Shown: piece after piece, positions 1,960 through 51,679 of the stretch | Numbering within the stretch: the first letter of the stretch is position 1 | How the letters are laid out: every line of letters begins with the position of its first letter | Virus record (IMG/VR): IMGVR_UViG_3300051212_001597 | Span: 1-60,503 of that record | Length of the DNA: 60,503 bases | Direction: 5' to 3' (one strand) | Source: a virus | Lineage: Duplodnaviria; Caudoviricetes | The notes under the pieces: generated by a model | The model's input: only the letters and a program-made list of their open reading frames with translations | Databases searched by the model: none | Told to the model about the DNA's origin: nothing | Translations under genes and position numbers: made by a program

Positions 1960-3009
1960 GTGACCGCTATAAGAGCAGCTGGTTGTTGTTGTGGAAAAGG
2001 CAATGTTGGAATATTTTGCCCAAACGATACAATTTTTAGACAAACTGTTAGTCCTGCTTTAGGTGTTCACACTCTTGAGCGTATATATCAATATATATAT
2101 GATGATAGAAAAAAGGGGAAGGTAGTTAGAATAGATTCAGAAGCGACCCTTATGGGTTGCGATGTTGCTTTTTTCGGAGTTTTAACTGGGGCTAACTCGA
2201 CAACAAACGCTGCCTCAGCTAAACTTGTATTTACGCCAGGCACAGGAACAACATCAACAGGATCGACTGGTAATGGTCTTGTTAGGTATCTCTCACCATG
2301 GTGGTCATCACCTTCTCTATCAGAAGCCTTAAGTAAATTCGTAGCAAAAGGAGGCAAGTTAGTGCTGCTTGGCGACGGTCCAGGAGTCAACGCCACGCCA
2401 GCATTTAGGGCTGCCGCTGTTACCGAGTGTAATTCAATATTAGTAGCCGCAAATAACAATAACAATGCTTCAACTTGCGTACAGTTTATCAATCCTCCAG
2501 CTTGTACTAATTGTTTCGGAGAATGTTCTTGTGCATCTCCAAAATGCGCAAAAGGAACAGCTCTTAGACAAGTTCTTCCAAACACGCCTTTTTCTTACTA
2601 CCCAAACAATGGTATCTGGACAGACCCAGAAGGAAGTGGTACGTACTTAGCATTTTTCTACCCTGGAAGCAGCAATGAATTTCAGCTTTTGACTGGTGGC
2701 ATTTCATATTTTTCAGCAAATTCTTGCGGTGGTGGATTACTAGGAACATATTATCCAGCTGCGTATTCACAGCTTTCTGGTGGTTATCACATAGTTATTT
2801 CTGATGTTAACTGTGTTCTCACATCACCAGTATCTATAGCTATGTTTTCTCAATTAGATCCAGATGATGGTGGATGCCCAGGAACTAATCAAGTTCCTGC
2901 AACAATTAATGCTGCTTGCAATCCAAATGGTATGTTCACTGGTCTAAATTTTTTAGATATAAACTTACCATTCTTATGGACATTGGCTCAGCCTTGTACA
3001 ACATGTTAA
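1960..3009 (+). CDS. Cys/Gly-rich protein, possibly virion-associated
   Basis: N-terminal GCCCG, internal LSKFVAKGGKLVLLGD, many cysteines, C-terminal PCTTC. Confidence 0.6.
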   Translation: MTAIRAAGCCCGKGNVGIFCPNDTIFRQTVSPALGVHTLERIYQYIYDDRKKGKVVRIDSEATLMGCDVAFFGVLTGANSTTNAASAKLVFTPGTGTTSTGSTGNGLVRYLSPWWSSPSLSEALSKFVAKGGKLVLLGDGPGVNATPAFRAAAVTECNSILVAANNNNNASTCVQFINPPACTNCFGECSCASPKCAKGTALRQVLPNTPFSYYPNNGIWTDPEGSGTYLAFFYPGSSNEFQLLTGGISYFSANSCGGGLLGTYYPAAYSQLSGGYHIVISDVNCVLTSPVSIAMFSQLDPDDGGCPGTNQVPATINAACNPNGMFTGLNFLDINLPFLWTLAQPCTTC

Positions 3010-3013
3010 CATT

Positions 3014-3610
3014 ATGGAAGAAAATAAATTTACAATAAACAAAGCCACAGAACTGCTGCAATCATTCTCAGGTTTAATGAAAGATGGTTGCGTATCTAGA
3101 GATGTTTACAACGAAAGAAGAAAGCTTTGTGAATCATGTGATCAAAACAACATAAATCAAAGCACAAAGAAACACTTCTGCGGAGGGTGCGGGTGCGGGG
3201 CTAGGCCTATGGCCGCACTTTACATAGAAGGCGTTCCTGTTGAGGAAGACCACAGTGTTAGACTATGGATGCCAAAATCAAACTGCCCAAAGAATCTACA
3301 TAAAGATGAGCGCGGCACTGGAAGCTTTAAAGAGGTTGGTGGTAGAATGAAACAACTAAAGGAGTTCACCCTCTCGACACTTGCTGAATCAATAGGAGCG
3401 TCTAGGAAGGACGACCCCCTTACGCCAGTTAATCAGACTATAGAAATAGTCGAGTCTGTCTCTGTTGACGAGAACGAGCTTGATGAGCTTGCAGACATAA
3501 TGGCTCCAGAAATCGAAAAAATCTCAGGCTCTGCAGCCTACAATGATTCGAAGGAAACAGCAAATGAAAAACACGATACACATTCCGGTAACAAGCAGCA
3601 ATCAGATTGA
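3014..3610 (+). CDS. Cys-cluster (putative Zn-binding) protein
   Basis: ERRKLCESC...CGGCGC...LWMPKSNCP. Confidence 0.6.
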   Translation: MEENKFTINKATELLQSFSGLMKDGCVSRDVYNERRKLCESCDQNNINQSTKKHFCGGCGCGARPMAALYIEGVPVEEDHSVRLWMPKSNCPKNLHKDERGTGSFKEVGGRMKQLKEFTLSTLAESIGASRKDDPLTPVNQTIEIVESVSVDENELDELADIMAPEIEKISGSAAYNDSKETANEKHDTHSGNKQQSD

Positions 3611-3728
3611 TCAAGTTAGAATGATAGTTAGAGCTATCACTAACGGCACAAATCAAAACTACAGAGTTAGAGAACGAAAGAATCGCAAGGGGCGCTATCT
3701 AAGCGTCTCAATTGACAAGAACCGCTGA
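3564..3728 (+). CDS. Small basic hypothetical protein
   Basis: SD-like AAGGA upstream of ATG at 3564. Confidence 0.5.
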   Translation: MKNTIHIPVTSSNQIDQVRMIVRAITNGTNQNYRVRERKNRKGRYLSVSIDKNR

Positions 3729-3996
3729 AATGTACAGACTATTCATCGACTATCCAATCAATGCCTCCTCGACAGAGGAGGCTGTTCTTATCGCACGAAA
3801 GATTATTGAAGGAACTGTTGTTTCAGAAGATAACAAGTCCTTCATGCTGTCTTCTGGTATTGATCAGATCAATTACAGGCTTGGTCATGACGAGGACAGG
3901 CAGAATAGAAATTATCTTGTTATGACAGAATCGGGACACGGCTCCACGAAAAAAACCAAAGTTTTCTTGGAGAAAAAGGTAACAGAAGACGTATAA
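3712..3996 (+). CDS. Hypothetical protein
   Basis: ORF fills the gap before the RNA array; start may be ATG at 3730. Confidence 0.55.
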   Translation: MTRTAEMYRLFIDYPINASSTEEAVLIARKIIEGTVVSEDNKSFMLSSGIDQINYRLGHDEDRQNRNYLVMTESGHGSTKKTKVFLEKKVTEDV

Positions 3997-3997
3997 T
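3992..3997 (+). promoter_or_regulatory. Putative -10 element (TATAAT) for the tRNA/ncRNA array
   Basis: Perfect TATAAT 9 nt before the first tRNA; no convincing -35 element. Confidence 0.45.
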
Positions 3998-4006
3998 AAG
4001 ATGTAA

Positions 4007-4077
4007 GCGCTGTGGGCGGAGAGTTTCGCAGACCGACTTATAATCGGTTCAACAAGGGGCAGCACCTTGACGGCGCA
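4007..4077 (+). tRNA. tRNA-Ile(UAU), non-canonical D and T arms
   Basis: Acceptor GCGCTGT/ACGGCGC, anticodon arm ACCGA-CTTATAA-TCGGT, T arm CAAGG-GGCAGCA-CCTTG, discriminator A. Confidence 0.8.
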
Positions 4078-4084
4078 TTTGGTT

Positions 4085-4157
4085 GCGAGTGTAGCTCAGC
4101 TGGTAGAGCCTTGGTTTTCCAAACCAATTGTCGCGGGTTCAAGTCCCGCCATTCGCT
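4085..4157 (+). tRNA. tRNA-Gly(UCC)
   Basis: Canonical cloverleaf: GCGAGTG/CATTCGC, anticodon loop TTTCCAA, T loop TTCAAGT, U73. Confidence 0.95.
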
Positions 4158-4160
4158 TTA

Positions 4161-4261
4161 AGAGATCGCGTTGATCTCTACTAGACACAGAAGGTTTTAG
4201 CTTTTAAGTAGATTATTCTACAGAATAAAGGTGAGGACGGACGACGCACTTCTGTGTTTAG
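4161..4261 (+). ncRNA. Unassigned structured RNA A (hairpin plus a domain closed by a 13-bp stem)
   Basis: AGAGATC-GCGTT-GATCTCT, then CTAGACACAGAAG (4181-4193) pairing with CTTCTGTGTTTAG (4249-4261); internal GTAGA/TCTAC hairpin. Confidence 0.5.
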
Positions 4262-4263
4262 AT

Positions 4264-4336
4264 GGCTTCCTAGTCCAAAGGCAGAGACAGAAGACTTAAA
4301 ATCTTCACAGTGTGGGTTCGAGTCCCACGGAAGCTA
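4264..4336 (+). tRNA. tRNA-Leu(UAA) with a short variable region
   Basis: GGCTTCC/GGAAGCT, GAAGA-CTTAAAA-TCTTC, GTGGG-TTCGAGT-CCCAC, A73. Confidence 0.9.
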
Positions 4337-4355
4337 CTGTTAGAAATCCCAGTCA

Positions 4356-4455
4356 ACGGAGGGGCGCGCACTCCGTAGAAGAACGCGATTAAGCAAAAAA
4401 TCGAACTCGTCGCAAGGGTTCGCAGAGGGATGCGGGCAATCTGTAGAAGAACGCA
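4356..4455 (+). ncRNA. Tandem H-type pseudoknot RNA (two copies)
   Basis: Units at 4356-4387 and 4422-4455 share an AGAAGAA linker and show compensatory changes in both stems. Confidence 0.6.
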
Positions 4456-4459
4456 AAAG

Positions 4460-4543
4460 GGCGAATGGTATAAAGGACGTGTGAGCCTCTTAGGGTATTA
4501 CCCACGGTTACCGTGGAATGTGGGTTCGAATCCCACTTCGCCA
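4460..4543 (+). ncRNA. tRNA-like RNA or pseudo-tRNA without a regular anticodon arm
   Basis: GGCGAA/TTCGCC acceptor, perfect T arm GTGGG-TTCGAAT-CCCAC, CCACGG-TTA-CCGTGG hairpin. Confidence 0.55.
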
Positions 4544-4551
4544 TTTCGAAT

Positions 4552-4687
4552 CTAGGTTAGTGTTTAACCTAGGTAGCGTGTGCCAAAATCTGTATAGGAA
4601 TGGCAAAAAGCCAAAAGAACCTGTACTTACAATGTAACTAAAGTTATAAAGGAAAACTCCTCCGAGTAACCTTTGGCAACACGCTAT
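4552..4687 (+). ncRNA. Unassigned structured RNA B (hairpin plus long-stem multibranch domain)
   Basis: CTAGGTTA-GTGTT-TAACCTAG, then TAGCGTGT/ACACGCTA and GCCAAA/TTTGGC closing stems; internal GTATAGG/CCTGTAC. Confidence 0.5.
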
Positions 4688-4693
4688 ATTTTA

Positions 4694-4766
4694 GCTCTCT
4701 TAGCTCAGTTGGTAGAGCATTCGGCTTTTAACCGATAGGTCGTAGGTTCGATCCCTACAGGGAGCA
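4694..4766 (+). tRNA. tRNA-Lys(UUU)
   Basis: Canonical cloverleaf GCTCTCT/AGGGAGC, anticodon loop CTTTTAA, T loop TTCGATC. Confidence 0.95.
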
Positions 4767-4781
4767 TTAAAGGAGTAAGTT

Positions 4782-5132
4782 ATGAAATTCAAGAAAATCG
4801 AAACAAACAAAACAACACCTTCTGAGATTACAGAAAAAGACTTCAAAATGATTCGTGTAACAATTAACTTTCCAGTACACAAGTCTTTTGGTCTTCATGA
4901 CATCTTATCAGAACTAGAAGGAATCGTTTCTGCCTATCCTCCAGAAAGGAATAGAGAAGAATTTATGGTCATTGAAGAATCTGAAGTGACAAAGGAAGAT
5001 CTCTCAAAATGGGTATCAACAAGTAAAACAACATCTGGCTGGGTTTGCTATAACCTAGACTCAGACAAAGAATATGAGATTGGAAAAATTTTCAAGAAGT
5101 CTTCGCGGCCGAGTGGGAAACGGCGGAGTTGA
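4782..5132 (+). CDS. Hypothetical protein, paralog of 36248-36553
   Basis: Strong SD AAGGAG; shares MxFKK, KMxxVTxxFPVxK, DILSE and IEESxVT with the 36248 ORF. Confidence 0.7.
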   Translation: MKFKKIETNKTTPSEITEKDFKMIRVTINFPVHKSFGLHDILSELEGIVSAYPPERNREEFMVIEESEVTKEDLSKWVSTSKTTSGWVCYNLDSDKEYEIGKIFKKSSRPSGKRRS

Positions 5133-5212
5133 CAAGACTTGCTCTTGCGTAAAACGATTTATTAAATTAATCGACAAAGCAAATAAACTAGTTCGAATCT
5201 AGTCGAAGACTA
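5098..5212 (+). ncRNA. Enlarged tRNA-like RNA (about 115 nt)
   Basis: AGTCTTCG/CGAAGACT acceptor, D arm GCCG-AGTGGGAAA-CGGC, T arm ACTAG-TTCGAAT-CTAGT, long insertion. Confidence 0.6.
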
Positions 5213-5225
5213 TAAAGGAAACAAA

Positions 5226-5900
5226 ATGGATATTTCAGAATTACTAATAAGCCTATCTTTTAAATCAAACTTAAACGAATTTCCACAAGCAAGACTAGCT
5301 GTCCACAATTCTGCTACCGTGAGATCTGAAGATCTAAACGAGCAAATTTTAATTGGGCCTGCGTTCATTAATATTCAAGAATCTGAAAAGGGATACACCC
5401 TAAATCTCGCAAATTCTTTTGAGTGTCCTTTGTATTTTGTTTTAGACCTCAATATGAAAACTGACTCAGAGCCAAAGAGGGTCCGAATTCAAATTCCAGA
5501 AAGCGTCAAACAACAAATAGATGAACAGAATAAATCTGTTCAAGATACGGCGTCTATTAATTACGTAAAATGTCAAAACGAGTTTTCTTTTGATGGAACG
5601 CAACTAGATACTGTTAAAAGTACAGAAAAATACGTTGATCTTATTTGGGATGGAAGAAAAACATCCACACCTTATATGAAGCATCGTATAGTAACTAAAA
5701 TAGATACTAACGATAATATCGCCTTTAAGGTTGATTTTTTCGATATTACCGATATAAATATGGATGGCCAAACAGACAAAAAAGACGCAGAAATCTGTAT
5801 AGCTAGTTGGAATACAGCTGAAGGCGATGTAAATTTAGATGGAACTACTGACTCTCAAGATGTATCAATTATAATGAGTCGATGGGAAACGCATGAATGA
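5226..5900 (+). CDS. Protein with C-terminal dockerin-like (DxNxDG) repeat pair
   Basis: DINMDGQTDKKDAEICIASW...GDVNLDGTTDSQDVSIIMSRW. Confidence 0.7.
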   Translation: MDISELLISLSFKSNLNEFPQARLAVHNSATVRSEDLNEQILIGPAFINIQESEKGYTLNLANSFECPLYFVLDLNMKTDSEPKRVRIQIPESVKQQIDEQNKSVQDTASINYVKCQNEFSFDGTQLDTVKSTEKYVDLIWDGRKTSTPYMKHRIVTKIDTNDNIAFKVDFFDITDINMDGQTDKKDAEICIASWNTAEGDVNLDGTTDSQDVSIIMSRWETHE

Positions 5901-6129
5901 AGATATTAAATCTGGAGCAAAAACTAGTGAATTTTGGGTATCATTGGCTCCTTTAATTTTGAGCTTTTCAAAAATCTCAGAAGAAAACACAGAGAACTCA
6001 AAGTATATAATGATATGCGGCTGCATTTTGGGATGCTTTTATATAGCTAGCAGAACGGCAATAAAAATAAATGTTAGACGAACAAAAAATAAAGAAGAGA
6101 TACAGGTCGGCTATCAAAGTAATCAATGA
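5893..6129 (+). CDS. Small membrane protein, possibly holin-like
   Basis: KTSEFW motif, two hydrophobic segments, basic C-terminus. Confidence 0.5.
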   Translation: MNEDIKSGAKTSEFWVSLAPLILSFSKISEENTENSKYIMICGCILGCFYIASRTAIKINVRRTKNKEEIQVGYQSNQ

Positions 6130-6571
6130 AGTAATAAAACATAAAAATATCAAATCAATAAAAGCAGAGGAAGTTGTAAACACAGCATATATAGCACTTG
6201 CTTCTACTGGTAAGGATATTAAATATCTTACAAACAAAAGCAAGTTCGTGCTTGTCGATATAATAAGATCAGAGTGCGGTAGAAGTGGGTCTAAAAGATC
6301 AGAAGCAAATAAGAATACAGTTTCAATAAGCGATTTTGATTTGCTAGCGTCGAAAACATATCATGACAATAAACTCAACGAAGATGAAACAAACTTTTTA
6401 AGGGTAGAATACCAGCTTTCGGAAAATGAATTCAAGATTCTATCAATGCGTAATTTAGATATGACGTTTAAAGATATTTCTAAAGTTGTTGGTCTTAGCG
6501 AATCTAGAATTTGTCAAATATCACACAGTTTAGCTGATAGAGTTATTAAGATGAGAAAGGCGAATAAATGA
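6071..6571 (+). CDS. Sigma-70 family factor, FliA/WhiG-like region 4
   Basis: LSENEFKIL...MTFKDISKVVGLSESRICQISH; region 2-like LVDIIRS. Confidence 0.75.
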   Translation: MLDEQKIKKRYRSAIKVINEVIKHKNIKSIKAEEVVNTAYIALASTGKDIKYLTNKSKFVLVDIIRSECGRSGSKRSEANKNTVSISDFDLLASKTYHDNKLNEDETNFLRVEYQLSENEFKILSMRNLDMTFKDISKVVGLSESRICQISHSLADRVIKMRKANK

Positions 6572-6954
6572 AAAAGGTAATGACCACTGGTGAAGTTGCA
6601 AATCTTTTTTCCGTTTCTGCGAGAACCATCTCTAAATGGGGTGATTCTGGAAAACTTAAGCAATGGAAAGTAAATAACGACAGAAGGTTTAATACTTCAG
6701 ATGTTGTAAAATTTGCAATTGATAATGGCATGGAGTCTTTAGTCTCAGACCTTCATATTGTTGAGCCTACAAAAAGTTCATCATCAAAAGATTTTCATAA
6801 AGACTATTTAAATCTATTGTCGAAAATCAAGAGTTTAATAAATACTGGGAAATTTTGCCTTGAAGATAAGACATATAAAATTTCAATTGATAATAAGAAC
6901 GATGTTATTCAATCAATTGAATTGATGGAAAAAACAATTCAAAAATATAATTGA
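6568..6954 (+). CDS. HTH_17/excisionase-like DNA-binding protein
   Basis: VMTTGEVANLFSVSARTISKWGDSGKLK...DRRF. Confidence 0.85.
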   Translation: MKKVMTTGEVANLFSVSARTISKWGDSGKLKQWKVNNDRRFNTSDVVKFAIDNGMESLVSDLHIVEPTKSSSSKDFHKDYLNLLSKIKSLINTGKFCLEDKTYKISIDNKNDVIQSIELMEKTIQKYN

Positions 6955-6963
6955 TAGTGTATA

Positions 6964-7653
6964 TCAAATAGCCGAAGGCCGATTATCGGGTGGACCCTTA
7001 GGATCGTCAAAGTCCACGGAGTCATTAACCCCTTCGGCCTTTTCTATTTTATAGTAATAACTAGAATCTTCTCCCGATATAACCCATCTGTCGCTGACGC
7101 TTTCTGTTTTATATACTTTTGTATCAACCTTGTAATCTGGCTTTTCTGGAAAAGGCTTTGTCGTGAAAGACATGTCTCTCCAGAATATTCTATTATTTGG
7201 TTGTAATGTATAGCAACCGTTGTCTAGCTCAATCATATGCAAGCACTTGTACTGTGTAGGCTCATCTGAAAAAGAGTTTCTATACCAATCGAAAGTCATC
7301 ATATAAGAACCCCAGTGTTCAGACCCGTCTTTAAACACGATCTTACATCTCATCTCCGAAAGATATTCGTATTCAATGACTGTCACATTTTCGCTGTAGC
7401 AGTCCCAAAGTTGAAGGAAATCCAACGGCATTTCATCTGCGTCATCACAAGAAGCTAGCATGTGAATAGGAACCCTGCTGCGAAGAGTTCCATTGTCCAA
7501 CATAACATTAAAAAGAAGCGCTCTTCCAGCATTTGATTGTGCTGAAAAAACACAAACTTTCTCAAACCCATCTATTGATTCGTCTCCTCCGTACAGATGG
7601 CGCTTTCTAAGCAGGCAATAGAAGTGCGGAATGTTTACATTTAACTTAGGCAC
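6964..7653 (-). CDS. Conserved hypothetical phage protein
   Basis: LNVNIP...LQLWDC...YKCLHMIELDNGCYTLQPNNRIFW pattern. GTG start at 7653 chosen because it lies 7 nt after GTGTATT. Confidence 0.75.
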   Translation of the reverse strand: MPKLNVNIPHFYCLLRKRHLYGGDESIDGFEKVCVFSAQSNAGRALLFNVMLDNGTLRSRVPIHMLASCDDADEMPLDFLQLWDCYSENVTVIEYEYLSEMRCKIVFKDGSEHWGSYMMTFDWYRNSFSDEPTQYKCLHMIELDNGCYTLQPNNRIFWRDMSFTTKPFPEKPDYKVDTKVYKTESVSDRWVISGEDSSYYYKIEKAEGVNDSVDFDDPKGPPDNRPSAI

Positions 7654-7657
7654 AAAA

Positions 7658-8194
7658 ATGAATACACCTAAAGAAACTAGAAATATCATAAATCATTACT
7701 GGTATTGGGAACATGAAGCAATTCGTGCTGATCTAGATACCAAAAGGCATAATTTTTCTGTGCTATGCTGCAACCTAGGGCAAGACTTTAATATAAGCAG
7801 CATCATCAGAAACACTGGCGCCTTTCTACCCAAAGAGGTTATTATTTGGGGTTCCAAGCAGTATGATAGGCGTGGCACTGTCGGAACTCATAAATATATC
7901 CATGTAAAGCATTTTAAAGAAGAGTCTCTAGAAGAAATGCTGAAATACTTTGCTGGCTCTAAAATAGTCGGAATAGATAATGTTTCTAGCGCAGTAAACA
8001 TAAAAAATTACGAATGGCCAAAAGAACATTTTGTGATGGCTTTCGGCCAAGAACAGATTGGCCTAGACCAAAATATTATAAACGCATGTTCTGATGTAGT
8101 TTATATTCCTCAAGTTGGTAGTGTGAGGAGTTTGAATGTAGCTTGCGCAAGCGCCATTACTATGTATGATTACTATGTAAAACTTGACAGTTAG
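7658..8194 (+). CDS. TrmH/SpoU-family (SPOUT) RNA methyltransferase
   Basis: NISSIIRN.GAF, FGQEQIGLD and IPQVGSVRSLNVACASAITMY SPOUT motifs. Confidence 0.9.
   Translation: MNTPKETRNIINHYWYWEHEAIRADLDTKRHNFSVLCCNLGQDFNISSIIRNTGAFLPKEVIIWGSKQYDRRGTVGTHKYIHVKHFKEESLEEMLKYFAGSKIVGIDNVSSAVNIKNYEWPKEHFVMAFGQEQIGLDQNIINACSDVVYIPQVGSVRSLNVACASAITMYDYYVKLDS
7661..7667 (-). promoter_or_regulatory. GTGTAT(A/T) putative phage promoter motif
   Basis: GTGTATT on the minus strand, 7 nt before GTG 7653. Confidence 0.5.
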
Positions 8195-8208: not shown

Positions 8209-8637
8209 ATGTATAGGATCAGAGTCTTTAATCAAGACGGAACTCTTGGAGGATTTTATTCAGAAAAAGGAATAGTTTCTAGTCCAGACTTGGCTAAGAC
8301 ATATTCCACTGACTCAGAATATCAAAAAGACTTAACTGCGGCCTTTTTCGCTAGCGGTGGATTAAAGTTCCCAAAAGTTAATTACGGAGTTTCTTCTGTG
8401 CCACTAGCCGACGCAGAAAAAACTAGATATGACAGTTTTGTTTCATCTATTGCTTCTCCAAAAACTATATCATACGATATAAACAGGCAAAACTCCTACC
8501 TTCCCCCTTTTGAAGACAAACCTTCTAGATCGCAGCTAGACGAGCCTATTTTCGTTCCTTCAATAGCCGATATTGATATAAATGGCGGCGATCTATCTCA
8601 AGACCAGGATCTAGATATTGACGGCGGTGGTGCGTAG
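8209..8637 (+). CDS. Hypothetical protein preceding the tail fibre
   Basis: C-terminal IDINGG/IDGGGA motifs, often seen beside fibre genes. Confidence 0.6.
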   Translation: MYRIRVFNQDGTLGGFYSEKGIVSSPDLAKTYSTDSEYQKDLTAAFFASGGLKFPKVNYGVSSVPLADAEKTRYDSFVSSIASPKTISYDINRQNSYLPPFEDKPSRSQLDEPIFVPSIADIDINGGDLSQDQDLDIDGGGA

Positions 8638-10802
8638 TGTCAATATATAAGATAAGAGCTAGAAGAGACTTGGCCGCGACCTGGACTTCTAAAAATCCAG
8701 TTCTAGGCCTTGGCGAAATAGGTTTCGAAACTGATACAAGAAAACTAAAGATCGGTGACGGCTCTTCTTCTTGGACAGTGCTTGATTATGTTGCTTATGA
8801 TGTTGGTGCTCATAACCAAGATATATCTACAGTTAACGGACTTCAGGCAGCTCTTAACGCTAAAGCTAATTCATCGCACACACACTCAATCTCTGACGTT
8901 TCTAATCTTCAAAATACGATAAACAATCTTTCGCCATTAGTCCATAGCCACTACATATCTGATGTAACAAATCTTCAAGCATCCCTAGATAATAAGTCAG
9001 ATGTTGGACACGTGCATTCCATATCTGATGTTTCGGCTTTGCAAATAGCACTAGACTCAAAAGCAGATGTTGCACACACTCATGCATACACTCATATAGG
9101 CGCTCCAGGAATAGACAGAAGTGTTCTTTATAACTTCTCTGGTGGAATAGACTCTTCTTCTGGATTTCTTTACGACTACAACACAAGCCATCTAATAGTT
9201 TCTGGAATAATAGAGGCTAGCGGTTCAGTTGTGGCCCCGCATTTTCAAGGTGGTCTTTTAGGGGCTGTTCAGTGTCCAGTCAAAAACACAAGCGGTGGAG
9301 CTATAGGAAAAGGCGTTCCAGTTTACATAACTGGAACTGTAGGCGCAACAACAACCCTAGAAATAGCAATAGCTAGGGCTGATGATCCTACAAAAATGCC
9401 AGCTCTAGGTCTTTTGGAAGCAGAACTTTCCGCAAATGCCACAGGACACGCCACTATACTTGGAACCCTTTCAAATTTAGACACTTCAGTATTTTCCGTT
9501 GGCAACACGGTCTATGTTGGTCCTACTGGCGGCTTAGTAAACACTAGACCAACTGGCGTAAGCATACTAGTACAAAATATTGGCAGGGTCGGAAGAGTAA
9601 ACTCAAACAACGGTGAAATAATAGTAACAGGACCAGGAAGAACCAACGATGTTCCTAACAATATTACGCTAGACAGTCTTTCAGATGTAACATCTAGCGG
9701 GGCGGCTAGCGGCCAAGTCTTACTGTATAACGGTTCTTACTGGTCTTATGGAAATGTGTCTTCTTCAGGACCCGGTGGTTCTGACACTCAGGTACAGTTC
9801 AATGACGGTGGCAATCTAGGCGGTGACTCTGGTCTTACATACAATAAGACAACAGACTCTCTTACTATAACTGGAGATCTTGCAGTAAATGGCGGTGACA
9901 TTACGACCACAAGTGCCACAGGATCTTTATATAATAATACAGCAACAACAATCAATATTGGTACACAGGCAGCAATTACTACAAATATAGGTAAAAATGA
10001 AAGTGGATCGTCGGTAAGTCTTTTTGGTGGAAATATCCAATTTTTAAAAGTGGATACTGGTTCAGCGGTTCATTCCTATATTTTTGATGGTTCTTCTGAT
10101 GGAATGTGGATACAATCTAATGCTCTTGGCGGTCCTATAGAAATAGGTGATCCAGAAGGATTTAGTAACACCACAAGAATAATTGTAACACCAGATTTCG
10201 ACGCTATTCAGTTTTATTTTGCTGGGGGTGCTTACACATTCCCAAATGCCGATGGTAGCAATGGACAAGTTCTAACAACAGACGGGGCTGGTCTTTTATC
10301 GTGGGCAACCGCAAGTGTTGGAACAAAAACATACTCAGTATTCACTCCATTAGACAACCAACCACCAGCGTCCAACTACGCTACAGTTGATACTCGTAAC
10401 TCAATAATGGTTCTTGAGTTTGATGCTGCTACCGACGAATCTGCTGTATTTGTTGGTGTTATTCCAGAAGCAGCCTCTCTTGGTAGTGGACTCAAAGTTA
10501 GAATACACTGGATGGCAGATACTGCAACATCTGGAACTTGTAGATGGGGAGTTCAGATTGAAAGAATGAACACTGATGAAGATTCAGATTCGTTTGATAC
10601 TGCTACTACTGCTGGATCTACAACTAATGGTACTTCTGGTATTATAACAACAACAGAAATTACAATTACTACAATAGACTCTGTTGCTGCTGGTGAACCA
10701 TTCAGACTCAAAGTATACCGTGATGCTGACGGAACTTCGGGAACCGACGACATGACGGGTGATGCTCAACTCGTTGCCGTTGAGGTAAGGAGTGCGTCGT
10801 AA
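8637..10802 (+). CDS. Tail fibre / receptor-binding protein
   Basis: Mtd/hyaluronidase-like N-terminus RRDLAATWTSKNPVLGLGEIGFETDTRKLKIGDG; HxHxISDV repeats; GSDTQVQFND and FPNADGSNGQVLTTDGAG fibre motifs. Confidence 0.85.
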   Translation: MSIYKIRARRDLAATWTSKNPVLGLGEIGFETDTRKLKIGDGSSSWTVLDYVAYDVGAHNQDISTVNGLQAALNAKANSSHTHSISDVSNLQNTINNLSPLVHSHYISDVTNLQASLDNKSDVGHVHSISDVSALQIALDSKADVAHTHAYTHIGAPGIDRSVLYNFSGGIDSSSGFLYDYNTSHLIVSGIIEASGSVVAPHFQGGLLGAVQCPVKNTSGGAIGKGVPVYITGTVGATTTLEIAIARADDPTKMPALGLLEAELSANATGHATILGTLSNLDTSVFSVGNTVYVGPTGGLVNTRPTGVSILVQNIGRVGRVNSNNGEIIVTGPGRTNDVPNNITLDSLSDVTSSGAASGQVLLYNGSYWSYGNVSSSGPGGSDTQVQFNDGGNLGGDSGLTYNKTTDSLTITGDLAVNGGDITTTSATGSLYNNTATTINIGTQAAITTNIGKNESGSSVSLFGGNIQFLKVDTGSAVHSYIFDGSSDGMWIQSNALGGPIEIGDPEGFSNTTRIIVTPDFDAIQFYFAGGAYTFPNADGSNGQVLTTDGAGLLSWATASVGTKTYSVFTPLDNQPPASNYATVDTRNSIMVLEFDAATDESAVFVGVIPEAASLGSGLKVRIHWMADTATSGTCRWGVQIERMNTDEDSDSFDTATTAGSTTNGTSGIITTTEITITTIDSVAAGEPFRLKVYRDADGTSGTDDMTGDAQLVAVEVRSAS
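8811..9083 (+). repeat. Four 22-aa tail-fibre repeats (HxHxISDVxxLQxxLxxK)
   Basis: HNQDISTVNGLQ / HTHSISDVSNLQ / HSHYISDVTNLQ / HVHSISDVSALQ. Confidence 0.85.
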
Positions 10803-41415: not shown

Positions 41416-42376
41416 AGCGTCTTCAATAAACTCTTACAGAGGATGTGAGTTTGCTTTTTTTATGGAGCAAATATTGGAGATACCAACAAAGAGCGGAAAA
41501 AAAGCCTTATTAGGAACTATCACGCATCATGTGCTAGAACTAATGGCAAAAGCAAAAAAGCTAGGCCACGAAGGCGGCTTGCTTTTTGACCATGAAAAGC
41601 TTCTCGATATATGTTGGAATAGATATACAAGAGAAAATCCAGAAATGGATTTAAAAAAGGGCGACAAAAAATTTTGTCTTTCATCAATTCAAAAAGTTAT
41701 AAATACTTTTTATGATCCAAAAAATCTCAACGTTCTACACACAGAAAAACAGTTTAGGATACCATTAACAGATCCTGTTTTTAAATATGAATACTATGAT
41801 ATAGTAAAAGGGGTTGTTGAAAAAGGAAATTACGAGATAAGAGGAACGATAGATTTGATAACCCAAGTTGACAACGAAACTATTGAAGTTGTTGATTGGA
41901 AGACGGGGTCTAGAAAATGTTGGAACACAGGAGAGAATAAGGAGTTTGATTATCTTCAATCAAAAGATATTCAGCTAAGAATGTATGATCTTGCCTGCTA
42001 TTTAATGTTTCCACAGTACAAGAACAGGCTTCTAACTATTCATTTTATCAATGATGGTGGGCCTTTTACTGTTGCTTTTTCCGACGAAGACAGAAAAGAG
42101 ACCCTAGCCATAATAGAAAAAACATTTAAAAATATTAAATGGAACCAGCTTCCAACTAGACTAAAAGAAAGCAACGCTAGCGACAGATGGAAATGTAAAA
42201 GTGTTTGCCACTTTGGCAAAACAAAAACAGCAGCTGGCTGCAGCATTTGCGACACAATACATTCTTACGTTGTTGGAAACGGTATAGACCAGACGATACT
42301 AGAGATAGATAAGCTAAAGAAATCTAAGCAAGAGCTAAAAAACAAGACTAGCGATAGGAGAAACGTTTTTGAATAA
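41396..42376 (+). CDS. Cas4/RecB-like PD-(D/E)XK exonuclease
   Basis: SSINSY..C, GTITH, RGTIDLI, VVDWKTG, QLRMY, C-terminal cysteine cluster. Confidence 0.85.
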   Translation: MDIKFLRASSINSYRGCEFAFFMEQILEIPTKSGKKALLGTITHHVLELMAKAKKLGHEGGLLFDHEKLLDICWNRYTRENPEMDLKKGDKKFCLSSIQKVINTFYDPKNLNVLHTEKQFRIPLTDPVFKYEYYDIVKGVVEKGNYEIRGTIDLITQVDNETIEVVDWKTGSRKCWNTGENKEFDYLQSKDIQLRMYDLACYLMFPQYKNRLLTIHFINDGGPFTVAFSDEDRKETLAIIEKTFKNIKWNQLPTRLKESNASDRWKCKSVCHFGKTKTAAGCSICDTIHSYVVGNGIDQTILEIDKLKKSKQELKNKTSDRRNVFE

Positions 42377-44237
42377 TATGAACTACACACCACTACACGT
42401 ACATACATGCTGGTCACTATTAGACAGCACGGTTGATGTAAATGAATATGTCGCAAAAATAAAAGAGGCTGGAGGCTCTGCTTGCTCAATAACCGACCAT
42501 AATAATTTAAAAGCGGTTGTCCCATTCTTCAAAGCATGTAAGGCTAGGGGGATAAAGCCAATAATAGGCGTCGAAGTGGACGTTTATTTAACGGACGAAA
42601 AATTTATTGGCAGACTAACACTGATAGCCAAAAACAAAGTTGGCTACAAAAATCTAGTAAATATAGTCTCAAACGCTAGATCAGAGTCTGTGTTTAAAAA
42701 AGAGACTACGCCAAAAACTCTTTTCAAAGATCTTCACCAATACTCTAGCGGGATCATATGCATGATCGGTGACTTAAGAAGCGAAATTTTTCATTCTTGC
42801 TTTGTTAATTTTGAAATGGCGTATGGCTCAAATAGCGAGGAGGAGTGCGAAAGCCTTCTTAGGCAGGACTGGAAAGAAAAGGTAAATGAGTTATTAGAAA
42901 AATACAGGAGGGTATTTAGCGATGTATTTTTGTATTTTGATTATTCAAAACTTCCAATTATTAAGGTTTTAGGCCAAAAAATAAAACAAGAATTTGATGA
43001 AGCTATACCCTCTGTAAATGTTCACTACATATCAAAAGAAGATTATCAGATTCACAGGCTTATATCAAGCGACTCAGAGGCTTTGTCTTCAAACATAGAT
43101 GATTCTAGGATTTTTGAAGAAGAGTATTGCTTTTGCCATCTTACAAAAACAATTCCGTCTGGCGAAAAGACCAAATTGGTTGTAGATTTGGTTGAGGACT
43201 TCTCAATAGAAGAACGCCCTATGATACCAGATTTTAAGATTAAAGGACATGAAATACAGGATCAGGACGAGTATCTTAGAGATATTTGCAGAAAGGGATT
43301 CTTAGAAAAGATATCGCCAAAGATTTCTTCAGACGCAAACCTTAAAAACATCTACCTAGACAGGATTAGGCACGAGTTAGGTGTTTTCAAGCAGGCTAAG
43401 ATATCGGGCTATTTCTTAATCGTCAAAGACATTGTTGATCACATTAGGCAAATGGGCTTTCCAGCAGATAGCCGCGGCTCGTCTTCGGGCTGCTTAATTT
43501 CCTACCTAATAGGCGTATCGTCAATTGATCCAATAGTGCCAGATGCATCACTTGCATATGCAAAAGAAAGAGAGCTTCCTTTTGAAAGATTTTACAACGA
43601 AGGAAGAAATACCGCTAGTAACGTTTCTTTGCCAGACATTGATATGGACGTGCCTCCTTCCATAAGAGACGATGTTATTAAATATCTTCGCGAAAAATAC
43701 GGAAAAGATCAAGTTGCTCATATAATCACGCATTCTAGGTTCAAAGGCAAGGGTGCAATAAAAGAAGCTTTTAGAATATTAAAACCTGTTAATAATTACT
43801 TTGATGTATCCAATGAAATAACAAAGCTTTTTGTTGATGAGAGCAAGATATCAGATGAATTAAGTGAACTTCAAGAAGAAGACCCGTCATATGGAATCAT
43901 AAGATGGAATATAGATAATATTACTGATGTAAATAAGTTTTACAATCAGTACAAAGAAGCTTTTGATTTTGCTATAAAAATAGAAAAGTTGCCAAAAAAC
44001 GAAAGTGTTCATGCTGCTGGTATAATAATAGGCGATAGACCGTTATATAAGCACTTTCCAATGACATATTCAAGCAAGTTAGGTCAGATGGTGATTGATA
44101 TCGAAGGTTCAGATTTAGAAATTCTTGGAGGCGTTAAGTTTGATATATTAGGAGTTTCTGCTATAGAAAAGGTTTTCCAGATAGAGAAAATGATAAATAA
44201 AAAACTTAATGAGGTTAGATTTGGAGAATTAAATTGA
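42369..44237 (+). CDS. dnaE: DNA polymerase III alpha, N-terminal part (PHP, palm, thumb)
   Basis: LHVHT.WSLLD, ITDH, GIKPIIGVE, RGSSSG, FERF, PDIDMD, HAAG, KFDILG, then a stop. Confidence 0.92.
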   Translation: MNNMNYTPLHVHTCWSLLDSTVDVNEYVAKIKEAGGSACSITDHNNLKAVVPFFKACKARGIKPIIGVEVDVYLTDEKFIGRLTLIAKNKVGYKNLVNIVSNARSESVFKKETTPKTLFKDLHQYSSGIICMIGDLRSEIFHSCFVNFEMAYGSNSEEECESLLRQDWKEKVNELLEKYRRVFSDVFLYFDYSKLPIIKVLGQKIKQEFDEAIPSVNVHYISKEDYQIHRLISSDSEALSSNIDDSRIFEEEYCFCHLTKTIPSGEKTKLVVDLVEDFSIEERPMIPDFKIKGHEIQDQDEYLRDICRKGFLEKISPKISSDANLKNIYLDRIRHELGVFKQAKISGYFLIVKDIVDHIRQMGFPADSRGSSSGCLISYLIGVSSIDPIVPDASLAYAKERELPFERFYNEGRNTASNVSLPDIDMDVPPSIRDDVIKYLREKYGKDQVAHIITHSRFKGKGAIKEAFRILKPVNNYFDVSNEITKLFVDESKISDELSELQEEDPSYGIIRWNIDNITDVNKFYNQYKEAFDFAIKIEKLPKNESVHAAGIIIGDRPLYKHFPMTYSSKLGQMVIDIEGSDLEILGGVKFDILGVSAIEKVFQIEKMINKKLNEVRFGELN

Positions 44238-50161: not shown

Positions 50162-51679
50162 ATGACATTTGAGACATCAAACATATCGTTAAAAAACGAC
50201 AAGGCTTGGCGGCTAATACAGAATGGTCACACTATAGGCGTATTCCAACTAGAGAGTGATCTAGGCAAGAAATGGTCTGCTACAATAAAGCCCTCTAATA
50301 TAAATGAGCTTAGCGCCGTAATATCATTGATAAGACCTGCATGCCTAGAATCTGGAATGACTGAGACTTATTCAAAGGTAAAAAGTGGCTTAATTGAGAA
50401 GCCCGATTACAATGATGAGTCTGTTAATTCGATACTGTCCCCGACAATGGGCGTTCTTATATATCAAGAACAGCTTATGAAATTTGGTGGCGAAATAGCT
50501 TGGAAGGATCTTCCATACCTTGATAGACTTGTGATTGTTGATAAGCTTAGAAAAGGCATTGGTAAGAAGGATCAAAAAATAATTATTGATCTTAGAGACA
50601 AATTCATAGCAGGATGTCTTAAGAACGGCAGATCAAAAGAAATGGCTGAAAAGCTTTTTTCTCTTATCGAAGGTGCTGGCAGATATGCTTTCAACGACGC
50701 TCACGCTAAAAAATATGCGCTTTGGGCTTACAAAACAGCCTACGTAAAAGCCAACTTTCCACTTGAATTTTATTGCGTCTATCTAACCTACAGCAAAGGT
50801 AAACAGAAGCCTAGAGAGGAGATAGAGGCTTTGATAAACGAGGCTAAGATGCTTGGGATAAGCATAGAAAAACCTTCTGTTTCAAATTCAAATTTTGACT
50901 TCTCAATAAAAGATGGCGTCATTCACTATGGCCTATCTCATATAAAACAGGTTGGTGAGTCTGATGCCGAACTGATAGAATCTCTTAGACCAGCTAGTTT
51001 TACTAGTTTACTTACCACACACTTCGCGTCTTCAGAAAAAATAAGATCACTAGCCCTAGAAAGCCTTATAAATTGTGGGGCTTGCGATGAATACGGACTA
51101 TCTAGATCGTGCATGCTATCTGTCTACAACATGCTTAAGCAATTAACTCAAAAAGAGATCGAGTTTATTTTCTCAAAAATAAATTCAGAAAGCGGAGTTC
51201 TAGATTTGATTGAGGCTGTTAAAAAATGTTCTGTTGAACAATGCGTAAAGAAAAGAAAAGACATAGTTATGTCAGAAGCTTTGTCAATTGACATAAAGTC
51301 TAGCGACTCTGCAGTGATTAAAAATTCTGTTGAAAAAGATCTTCTTGGAATAGCCTTTAGTTATGATTACAATGTAAATGTCGAAGACGACTGGAGTTGC
51401 AAGGAGTGTTTCAATAAAATGCGTGTCAACAAAAACATGATTGCGAATCTAACTGTAAAAATAAACGATATCAAGATTACAAAAACAAAAAAGGGCAAAG
51501 ATCCTGGCAAGGATATGTGCCAACTTTCTATTGCAGATAACACTGGTTTTATAAACGTGGTTTGCTTCCCCGACACATACGAGAAATTTAAAAACTCTAT
51601 AGCGGTTGGTTCATACTACTGCGTAGTGCTTAAGGGAACTGGATTCGGTTGGTCTGTAAATTCAATTAAAAACGTATAA
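50162..51679 (+). CDS. dnaE: DNA polymerase III alpha, C-terminal part (fingers, HhH, OB)
   Basis: GVFQLES, LIRP, LIYQEQLM, LRKGIGKK, YAFNDAHA, YVKANFP, YGLSHIKQVG, OB-fold end. Confidence 0.92.
   Translation: MTFETSNISLKNDKAWRLIQNGHTIGVFQLESDLGKKWSATIKPSNINELSAVISLIRPACLESGMTETYSKVKSGLIEKPDYNDESVNSILSPTMGVLIYQEQLMKFGGEIAWKDLPYLDRLVIVDKLRKGIGKKDQKIIIDLRDKFIAGCLKNGRSKEMAEKLFSLIEGAGRYAFNDAHAKKYALWAYKTAYVKANFPLEFYCVYLTYSKGKQKPREEIEALINEAKMLGISIEKPSVSNSNFDFSIKDGVIHYGLSHIKQVGESDAELIESLRPASFTSLLTTHFASSEKIRSLALESLINCGACDEYGLSRSCMLSVYNMLKQLTQKEIEFIFSKINSESGVLDLIEAVKKCSVEQCVKKRKDIVMSEALSIDIKSSDSAVIKNSVEKDLLGIAFSYDYNVNVEDDWSCKECFNKMRVNKNMIANLTVKINDIKITKTKKGKDPGKDMCQLSIADNTGFINVVCFPDTYEKFKNSIAVGSYYCVVLKGTGFGWSVNSIKNV

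Follow-up and report, generated by a model that had tools for sequence, protein, structure and literature searches.

We analysed a 60,503-nucleotide (nt) stretch of DNA, here called the window, from an uncultivated virus of the Caudoviricetes (IMG/VR record IMGVR_UViG_3300051212_001597, positions 1 to 60,503), and focused on two H-type pseudoknots, unit 1 (U1) and unit 2 (U2), that lie at 4356-4455 within a transfer RNA (tRNA) array. Our analysis showed that U1 and U2 are the two pseudoknots of one conserved RNA domain of ~100 nt, in which knot 1, an A-rich linker, a hairpin and knot 2 follow one another. We regard the element as a new family within a known general kind of RNA, whose new mechanism is plausible but unproven. 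We infer that it encodes a non-coding RNA that is co-transcribed with the tRNAs and processed to its mature form by the tRNA-processing enzymes. The parts of the element in the window are the following.

4356-4387, plus strand: U1, read from the sequence and covered by a covariance-model (R1) match at 4353-4390; orthologous U1 copies with covarying stems 1 and 2 are present in 7 tandem loci.
4388-4401, plus strand: single-stranded linker AUUAAGCAAAAAAU, in which AAGC and AAAAU are invariant in 8/8 tandem copies (alignment A3).
4402-4422, plus strand: middle hairpin CGAACUC/GGGUUCG with a 7-nt loop, abutting U2 stem 1, from the minimum free energy (MFE) fold and covariation.
4422-4455, plus strand: U2, read from the sequence and covered by an R1 match at 4419-4458.

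In U1, stem 1 is formed by ACGGA (4356-4360) with TCCGT (4372-4376) and stem 2 by CGCG (4365-4368) with CGCG (4384-4387); loop 1 is GGGG (4361-4364), loop 2 CAC (4369-4371) and loop 3 AGAAGAA (4377-4383). In U2, GCAGA (4422-4426) pairs with TCTGT (4440-4444) and TGCG (4431-4434) with CGCA (4452-4455), and the three loops are GGGA (4427-4430), GGCAA (4435-4439) and AGAAGAA (4445-4451). Direct reading confirmed every coordinate and base that the initial annotation had given for the two units, as well as the changes that it described from U1 to U2: G-C to A-U and A-U to G-U in stem 1, C-G to U-A in stem 2, and an identical AGAAGAA. The fold claimed for U2 stem 1 also stood, except for G4422, which is better placed as the last pair of the hairpin 4402-4408/4416-4422. 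U2 stem 1 therefore has 4 or 5 pairs, (4422)4423-4426 with 4440-4443(4444). The units form a two-copy repeat of 23 nt with 87% identity, 68 nt apart, and share the 12-mer GTAGAAGAACGC, whose exact matches in the 60.5 kb fall only at U1 and U2; with up to 2 mismatches, 8 matches were found in the window versus 3.95 ± 2.0 expected.

The changes between the two units had been taken as a sign of selection on structure. Selection on the pseudoknot fold was borne out, and far more strongly by the orthologues than by U1 and U2 alone. Alignment A4, which consists of 34 distinct copies from other contigs and contains no window sequence, served as the basis of the covariance model R1, and R1 was scanned over the whole window on both strands with the filters off. 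This window-free model recovered both units, U2 with 51.9 bits (E 1.8e-13) and U1 with 50.5 bits (E 4.8e-13), and its next-best match in the window had 11.6 bits (E 0.18). R1 matched neither a degenerate putative third copy (4587-4614) nor a stretch (4213-4224) that resembles TCTGTAGAA in inverted orientation, and both were thus left out of the family. The homologues keep the stem pairings: 98.0% of the cells in A4 form standard pairs, against 83.7 ± 1.4% in shuffles (0/500 reached the observed value) and at most 48% with slid partners. Double changes occur in three of the five stem-1 pairs and one of the four stem-2 pairs. Pair by pair, stem 1 shows G-U/A-U/G-C, C-G/A-U/U-A, G-C/A-U, an invariant G-C, and U-A/A-U; in stem 2, the first position holds C-G (18 copies), U-A (12) or U-G (4), and the other three pairs do not vary. 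The UGCG/CGCA stem 2 of the U2 type recurs independently in L135, L136, L138 and many metagenome copies. Two cores of the main clade (L117 and L138) carry one A-G mismatch each in stem 1. Because the 16 G-U and 4 U-G cells of A4 would be A-C mismatches on the opposite strand, the fold belongs to the plus strand, which is the strand of the tRNAs. Loop 2 measures 3-5 nt in 34/34 copies, and the unpaired GGGG and AGAAGAA are strictly conserved in A4, where they are partly fixed by the search patterns. Both units exceed 50 bits and share the features by which we propose to define the family, namely an H-type knot with a covarying stem 1, a G+C-rich stem 2 of 4 base pairs (bp), loop 1 GGGN and loop 3 AGAAGAA; in context, they lie on the tRNA strand of an array, directly 5' of a tRNA-like domain or tRNA.

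This evidence is comparative rather than thermodynamic, since the nested fold of 4338-4458 is unexceptional: its MFE has a z-score of -0.99 on the plus strand, where 33/200 shuffles fold equally well, and of -0.44 on the minus strand, and such a z-score is uninformative for a pseudoknot. The nested MFE fold employs a pairing of ATCCC (4346-4350) with GGGAT (4427-4431) that had been named as a competing alternative to the knot. This pairing is kept only in L165, with a register shift, and the CCC upstream of the module is missing by eye in L170 and L172; the competing pairing is thus not conserved. A tmRNA-like (transfer-messenger RNA-like) tag read from GCA at 4412-4414 was likewise rejected: the loop letters are not conserved in L165, L168, L169 and L170, and the frame crosses U2.

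We searched several collections for relatives. The pattern scan of IMG/VR returned 58 stretches, 42 of which are family members with at least 4/5 stem-1 pairs; the other 16, with at most 3 stem-1 pairs, are chance matches in G+C-rich coding DNA. The exact tandem pattern gave 0 stretches in IMG/VR, and the pattern scan of metagenomes gave 11 contigs. Among the IMG/VR loci around homologues of the gene at 6964-7689 (phrog_3704), 15/59 have one copy of the motif on the strand of that gene; no relatives were found for the open reading frame (ORF) at 5226-5900. In bacterial and archaeal genomes (one for each of ~185,000 species), 22 pattern matches were obtained and no family copy. They look like chance matches in G+C-rich DNA: 21 have at most 3/5 stem-1 pairs, the remaining one has 5/5 with no tRNA-like context visible in the flanks examined, and one of the 22 is a plain hairpin. 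The only search independent of the pseudoknot sequence was anchored on the upstream hairpin. Of its 50 stretches, 38 were already known from the knot pattern, so only three are independent of the knot sequence: the 12 new loci comprise these three family copies (by eye), all with the knot, and nine unrelated stretches. A search anchored on the T arm returned eight stretches, six of which are, by eye, ordinary tRNAs of unrelated phages without the knot. Blastn of 4000-4800 against deposited phage genomes matched tRNA parts only, with no record covering at least 80%. The family is known from phage or metagenome contigs only, including dozens of contigs of uncultivated phages, and in all cases it sits inside a tRNA array. 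A tRNA called by ARAGORN lies on the same strand within 120 nt in 51/56 family loci, none was seen on the opposite strand near the 56 loci, and several relatives have no upstream tRNA. Rfam, searched with E up to 10 for 4330-4470 and one main-clade copy, gave no family matches; Rfam 15 lacks the family, which could be proposed to RNA family databases as a new entry. The literature searched, which did not extend to the 10,006 candidate RNAs of PMC10690425, does not describe the motif.

Relatives of the knot occur in three architectures, tandem, single and embedded, and a hairpin abuts stem 1 in every one of them. The tandem order of U1, linker, hairpin and U2 recurs in seven other contigs (L162, L165, L168, L169, L170, L171 and L172). 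The pair did not arise by a recent duplication: each unit has its own orthologues, and U1 and U2 are old, diverged paralogues. In the 8 distinct tandem sequences, 97.9% of the cells are paired and 6 pairs show double changes; in the middle hairpin, 7/7 pairs are 100% paired and three have double changes. U2 was fixed by the search pattern in this alignment, and U1 and the middle hairpin covary.

In the single-knot type, a hairpin and one knot precede a 68-nt tRNA-like domain (L100, L110, L163, L164, L166 and L167) or, in L069, a 92-nt tRNA resembling tRNA-Sec. Relatives of the main clade and of the 68-nt type have a single knot copy each. The largest clade (55 copies, 30 distinct) has the embedded form, in which the knot is the core of a double-pseudoknot RNA of ~135 nt. 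Its 30 distinct sequences are 96.3% paired with double changes in 10 pairs, including those of a second, loop-linker pseudoknot, in which the loop of the upstream hairpin pairs with the linker (CUGAU/AUCAG, or CUAAU/AUUAG in L099). Further parts of this form are a hairpin of 7 bp, four of which covary, and a closing stem, GGGC/GCCC, that does not vary; its 5' neighbour is a tRNA-Gly or a sigma-70-like promoter (by eye), and its 3' neighbour a tRNA-Tyr, Thr or Val.

The architectures bear on the kinship with type III antitoxin RNAs that the initial annotation had considered, and in its most specific version on the explanation that the element is a phage mimic of such an antitoxin (pseudo-ToxI) that neutralises a ToxN-like endoribonuclease of the host. 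Phages such as phiTE are reportedly able to mimic ToxI, and the window phage does carry, in tandem, two knots of roughly antitoxin size, as ToxI, CptI and TenpI consist of pseudoknot-forming units of 30-45 nt in more than one copy. However, those are head-to-tail, near-identical repeats of 34-45 nt, whereas U1 and U2 are not head-to-tail: they lie 68 nt apart, with the conserved, unrelated linker and hairpin between them, have separate orthologues, and a single copy is the rule among the relatives. None of the 10 neighbouring ORFs matched a PADLOC toxin model; the single hit in that comparison was a helix-turn-helix (HTH) protein (mad1). An adjacent ToxN/CptN/TenpN/AbiF-like gene is typical for a type III antitoxin and is not required of a phage mimic. 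Rfam holds a ToxI model, and no curated antitoxin RNA model matched 4330-4470 with E up to 10; moreover, 0/22 bacterial and archaeal pattern matches are family copies. The kinship is not supported, and we regard antitoxin mimicry as extremely unlikely.

Both units of the window lie in a four-gene tRNA array on the plus strand, identified with ARAGORN and Rfam, where they fill the 121-nt spacer 4338-4458. The array genes are listed here.

4085-4157, plus strand: tRNA-Gly (UCC), the first gene of the array (ARAGORN, Rfam).
4264-4337, plus strand: tRNA called Leu by ARAGORN (anticodon UAA), 55.7 bits, without a long variable arm.
4459-4544, plus strand: tRNA-like domain, Rfam tRNA 29.3 bits versus a cut-off of 29, with no ARAGORN call.
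4694-4766, plus strand: tRNA-Lys (UUU), the last gene of the array (ARAGORN, Rfam).

A tRNA or tRNA-like domain lies 3' of the last knot in all architectures, at a gap of 2-10 nt or, in L168 and L171, where an extra hairpin intervenes, of 28-50 nt; the distances from stem 2 to the acceptor stem are 3 (window), 2-3, 8, 8-9, 8, 9-10, 3, 5 and 5 nt. The domain at 4459-4544 closes on itself. It has an acceptor stem of 6-7 bp, a D region with GG and an inserted hairpin of ~21 nt, and a canonical T arm (GUGGG UUCGAAU CCCAC). At the place of the anticodon arm it has a 6-bp hairpin with a 3-nt loop instead of a 7-nt loop on a 5-bp stem. The L165 orthologue shows, by eye, compensatory changes in the T stem and the acceptor. 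In the 68-nt form, the acceptor covaries (5/6 pairs), a 5-bp stem carries a 5-nt loop CNNCA, the T arm has a canonical T loop, and compensatory changes occur in 8/16 pairs; six relatives have the 5-nt loop in place of the anticodon loop. ARAGORN called the L165 copy 'tRNA-Stop (tta)', a decoding function that was rejected because no 5-bp anticodon stem fits, and the long open frames of the window gave no sign of stop-codon recoding under the standard code. These domains are conserved tRNA look-alikes that are unable to decode. A weak Rfam likeness of the tRNA-like domain to the small RNA SpF41 (17.8 bits versus 52, E 1.9) was judged to reflect shared tRNA-like D and T arms.

Unusual tRNAs are also found 3' of the knot, namely the Sec-like tRNA of L069, with an 8-bp acceptor, and a class II tRNA-Tyr in L172. 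The former (L069 1821-1912, minus strand, 92 nt), directly 3' of the pseudoknot, has UAU as its anticodon, a long variable arm and a D stem of 5 bp that closes a 3-nt loop. Among the Rfam families it fits tRNA-Sec best, although its 32.5 bits fall short of the cut-off (47), and it is an allo-tRNA-like oddity. The constant position 5' of structurally unusual tRNAs or anticodon-less tRNA-like domains, together with the hairpin that always abuts stem 1, would suit a cis-acting leader that aids the folding of the odd downstream RNA, fixes its RNase P cleavage site or shields its precursor from nucleases that depend on the 5' end, and has no later role. Such a leader is unlikely: its distance from the tRNA ranges between 2 and 50 nt, ordinary tRNAs of the same arrays, 4 nt apart in L069, need none, and help with folding would not by itself readily explain why the single-stranded linker is invariant or why the tandem form exists.

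Among the possible explanations, we tentatively favour one in which the knot caps a small RNA released by RNase P, a possibility that draws on analogy. The tRNA-like domain would act as a processing handle for RNase P, which reads the acceptor/T-arm stack, and cleavage at its 5' end, at about 4458/4459, would leave U2, probably with base triples, ~3 nt from the new 3' end of an upstream RNA of ~120 nt. As 3' exonucleases require a single-stranded tail of roughly 7-10 nt, the compact U2 knot at this end could block 3'-to-5' exonucleases; U1 would shield the 5' side of the small RNA, and the invariant single-stranded linker would be the likely exposed working surface of the stable product. A handle of this kind would explain the fixed order of knot and tRNA-like domain, their short spacing, and why the anticodon loop has been lost but not the parts that RNase P reads. 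It would also explain why the module lies 3' of same-strand ORFs in L172 (129 amino acids, aa), L069 (92 aa) and L165 (44 aa), with no other element or only a hairpin between. In addition, no terminator-like site was found on the plus strand at 4150-5500.

Several observations weigh against this explanation. Loops 1 and 3 owe part of their conservation to the way in which copies were found: the patterns behind most of them prescribe both loops and part of stem 2, so that invariance there is to some extent built in. The tRNA-like part of the largest clade is degenerate, with the 4-bp invariant GGGC/GCCC stem and no clean T arm, which makes RNase P cleavage beside the knot doubtful there; the knot of this clade may be internal to an RNA of ~150 nt that extends to the next tRNA. 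In L168 and L171, the knot and the tRNA-like domain are set apart by an extra hairpin, and the conserved 5-nt loop and D region suggest that the tRNA-like domain has a role beyond the recruitment of RNase P. Two RNA-library runs cover only tRNA-like stretches, probably from other organisms, and give no information on the expression or the ends of the element. Finally, neither a target nor a partner of the released RNA emerged: a search of the window for antisense targets of the linker gave four matches versus 2.1 expected and no minus-strand match.

The chief rival of the RNase P handle is that no separation occurs and the knot or knots form, with the tRNA-like domain, one tRNA mimic, in which the 5' knot stacks by the acceptor helix and prevents or modifies RNase P cleavage, and which acts in trans as a decoy or regulator of a tRNA-binding factor (a processing enzyme, an elongation factor or a tRNA-directed defence nuclease). 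The co-occurrence of knot and tRNA-like domain in every architecture, 2-10 nt apart, is consistent with a joined RNA, as are the structural selection on the tRNA-like domain with its conserved non-anticodon loop and the fact that the main-clade knot and the degenerate tRNA-like part form one conserved unit of ~135 nt. By eye, a sigma-70-like promoter lies just 5' of the unit in L007, L012, L035 and L036, and AAA (4456-4458) could pair with UUU (4545-4547), lengthening the acceptor helix of the window domain. On the other hand, nothing that RNase P usually requires is missing from the tRNA-like domain, the 68-nt forms do not keep the acceptor extension (by eye), and no candidate partner protein is conserved beside the element across classes. 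We consider the joined mimic possible but doubtful.

By proposed mechanism, the closest analogue of the element is MALAT1/mascRNA; by context, its closest analogues are T4 RNAC/RNAD and the theta ribozymes. MALAT1 and MEN-beta are eukaryotic nuclear long non-coding RNAs with a 3' triple helix followed by the tRNA-like mascRNA. In both cases, a tRNA-like element whose anticodon loop is reduced directly follows a compact structure of triplex type that is rich in A, such that an RNase P cut between the two parts would leave the structure at the new 3' end. However, MALAT1 has a U-rich/A-rich triple helix, whereas the phage element is an H-type pseudoknot with no sequence relation to it, and the weak mascRNA-menRNA matches of Rfam fall on ordinary tRNAs and not on the pseudoknot element. 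The full analogy would make the element a lake-phage counterpart of MALAT1/mascRNA, with an anticodon-less tRNA-like gene that is purely an RNase P handle and a small RNA or messenger RNA 3' end that is capped by an exonuclease-resistant, triplex-type knot. This, too, is doubtful; if true, RNA 3' ends would be formed and stabilised without a terminator, by a route not known to have been described in bacteria or phages. Tobacco mosaic virus and turnip yellow mosaic virus also have pseudoknot domains upstream of 3'-terminal tRNA-like structures, and resemble the phage element in having one or more pseudoknots directly 5' of such a structure. Those are the 3' ends of eukaryotic RNA virus genomes with an aminoacylatable tRNA-like structure, and no sequence relation exists here.

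The theta ribozymes bear on the explanation that the element is a new class of small self-cleaving ribozyme that processes the tRNA-array transcript. To our knowledge, its 32-nt core is smaller than any known self-cleaver. According to bioRxiv 10.1101/2023.06.13.544163, theta ribozymes are minimal ribozymes resembling that of hepatitis delta virus (HDV), lie beside phage tRNAs and are proposed to process tRNA 3' trailers; they have a nested double pseudoknot, a P3 helix and a catalytic C in J4/2, and cleave within +/-5 nt of the tRNA 3' end. They thus set a precedent of pseudoknotted self-cleavers beside phage tRNAs and resemble the present element in being small pseudoknotted RNAs next to Caudoviricetes tRNA genes on the same strand, and the strict conservation of the unpaired GGGG and AGAAGAA would also suit a ribozyme. 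Theta ribozymes come mostly from gut phages and have the double knot, whereas here a simple H-type knot lies 5' of a tRNA-like domain in lake phages. An HDV-like or theta ribozyme was rejected: the 3-5 nt of loop 2 leave no room for a P3 helix, no Rfam ribozyme matched with E up to 10, and U1 starts 18 nt past the end of the upstream tRNA (4264-4337), outside the +/-5 nt, with several relatives lacking an upstream tRNA altogether. The distances to the flanking tRNAs also vary. We consider self-cleavage quite unlikely.

The dimensions of the knot had also been compared with those of preQ1-I aptamers and of pseudoknot 1 (pk1) of tmRNA. The H-type topology and dimensions match those of the preQ1-I, SAM-II and guanidine-III aptamers, and a likeness to Escherichia coli pk1 is presumed; the shared features are a stem 1 of 4-5 bp, a short loop 1, a G+C-rich 4-bp stem 2 and a 7-nt A-rich loop 3. 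A ligand-sensing aptamer of this size class would fit the conserved loops, and tandem aptamers exist in other riboswitch classes. In contrast to those aptamers, the element has no covariance-model match to a riboswitch in Rfam and no regulated gene: the tRNA-like domain and then tRNA-Lys lie downstream, with no queuosine-related gene and no terminator-like site. Because tRNA-like genes follow, stem 2 has nothing to control, as no ORF, ribosome-binding site or terminator is placed for it, and the main-clade knot is embedded in a larger RNA. We therefore found no support for kinship with preQ1-I, and a riboswitch is very unlikely. Kinship with pk1 is not supported either, as ARAGORN and Rfam found no tmRNA in the window. 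A permuted two-piece tmRNA was observed in L110 (7416-7734, minus strand; RF04321, 48.7 bits versus a cut-off of 47), with a tag frame ending in MAA, ~1.8 kb from the pseudoknot module of that contig.

T4 RNAC and RNAD are small stable non-tRNA RNAs of the T4 tRNA region, co-transcribed with the tRNAs, and exemplify the extra small RNAs of phage tRNA clusters that have long been known and whose role is left unexplained (PMC3014915). The present element resembles them by its context inside a phage tRNA cluster. It provides a clean, covariation-backed case of a non-tRNA RNA in phage tRNA arrays, in the single, tandem and embedded architectures, and its coupling to a tRNA look-alike that has lost the decoding loop and kept the parts read by processing enzymes makes the purpose of non-tRNA array genes directly testable in a single short construct. 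A real RNase P handle would amount to a new principle by which bacterial RNA 3' ends form and are stabilised, and would offer synthetic biology a compact tool; a real joined tRNA mimic would point to a new kind of phage decoy RNA.

Other parts of the array were also compared between contigs. The UAA-anticodon tRNA (73-74 nt; window 4264-4337, L069 1744-1816, and L170) is conserved in three related contigs and lacks in all of them the long variable arm of bacterial tRNA-Leu; it lies 5' of the module in L170 and 3' of it in L069. The spacer 4158-4263, between tRNA-Gly and this tRNA, is strongly structured (z -5.2), with 13-nt inverted arms at 4181-4193 and 4249-4261, and related strains retain it with small insertions and deletions. 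The spacer 4545-4693, between the tRNA-like domain and tRNA-Lys, forms a very stable long hairpin (-48.7 kcal/mol, z -6.8) that is missing from related lake strains, whose contigs, from two DNA runs, pass directly from 4544 to 4689 with 144 nt omitted, and from L165. This hairpin looks like an inserted element and is possibly mobile. A small basic protein with the motif HSAGKGD..RP.DY.KWS.NWD.IF was seen by eye 3' of the array in L163, L166, L169 and L172; it is not among the ORFs at 2000-7500, the part of the window searched for it.

The window is a fragment of a freshwater phage with an estimated completeness of 39%, and its phage or near relatives are present in freshwater and lake DNA sequencing runs. 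The next ORF after tRNA-Lys begins at 4782, and Pfam assigned sigma factors, a deaminase and HTH domains to the neighbouring ORFs. The phage genes of the window encode a Mtd-like tail protein, DnaB, a split DnaE, a class II ribonucleotide reductase and two sigma-like proteins. The DNA polymerase III alpha subunit is divided between ORFs 42369-44237 and 50162-51679, ~6 kb apart, one with PHP and NTPase domains and the other with finger, HhH and OB domains, and the genes between them lie in part on the opposite strand. The 721-aa protein encoded at 8637-10802 combines a Mtd N-terminal domain with phage-tail repeats.

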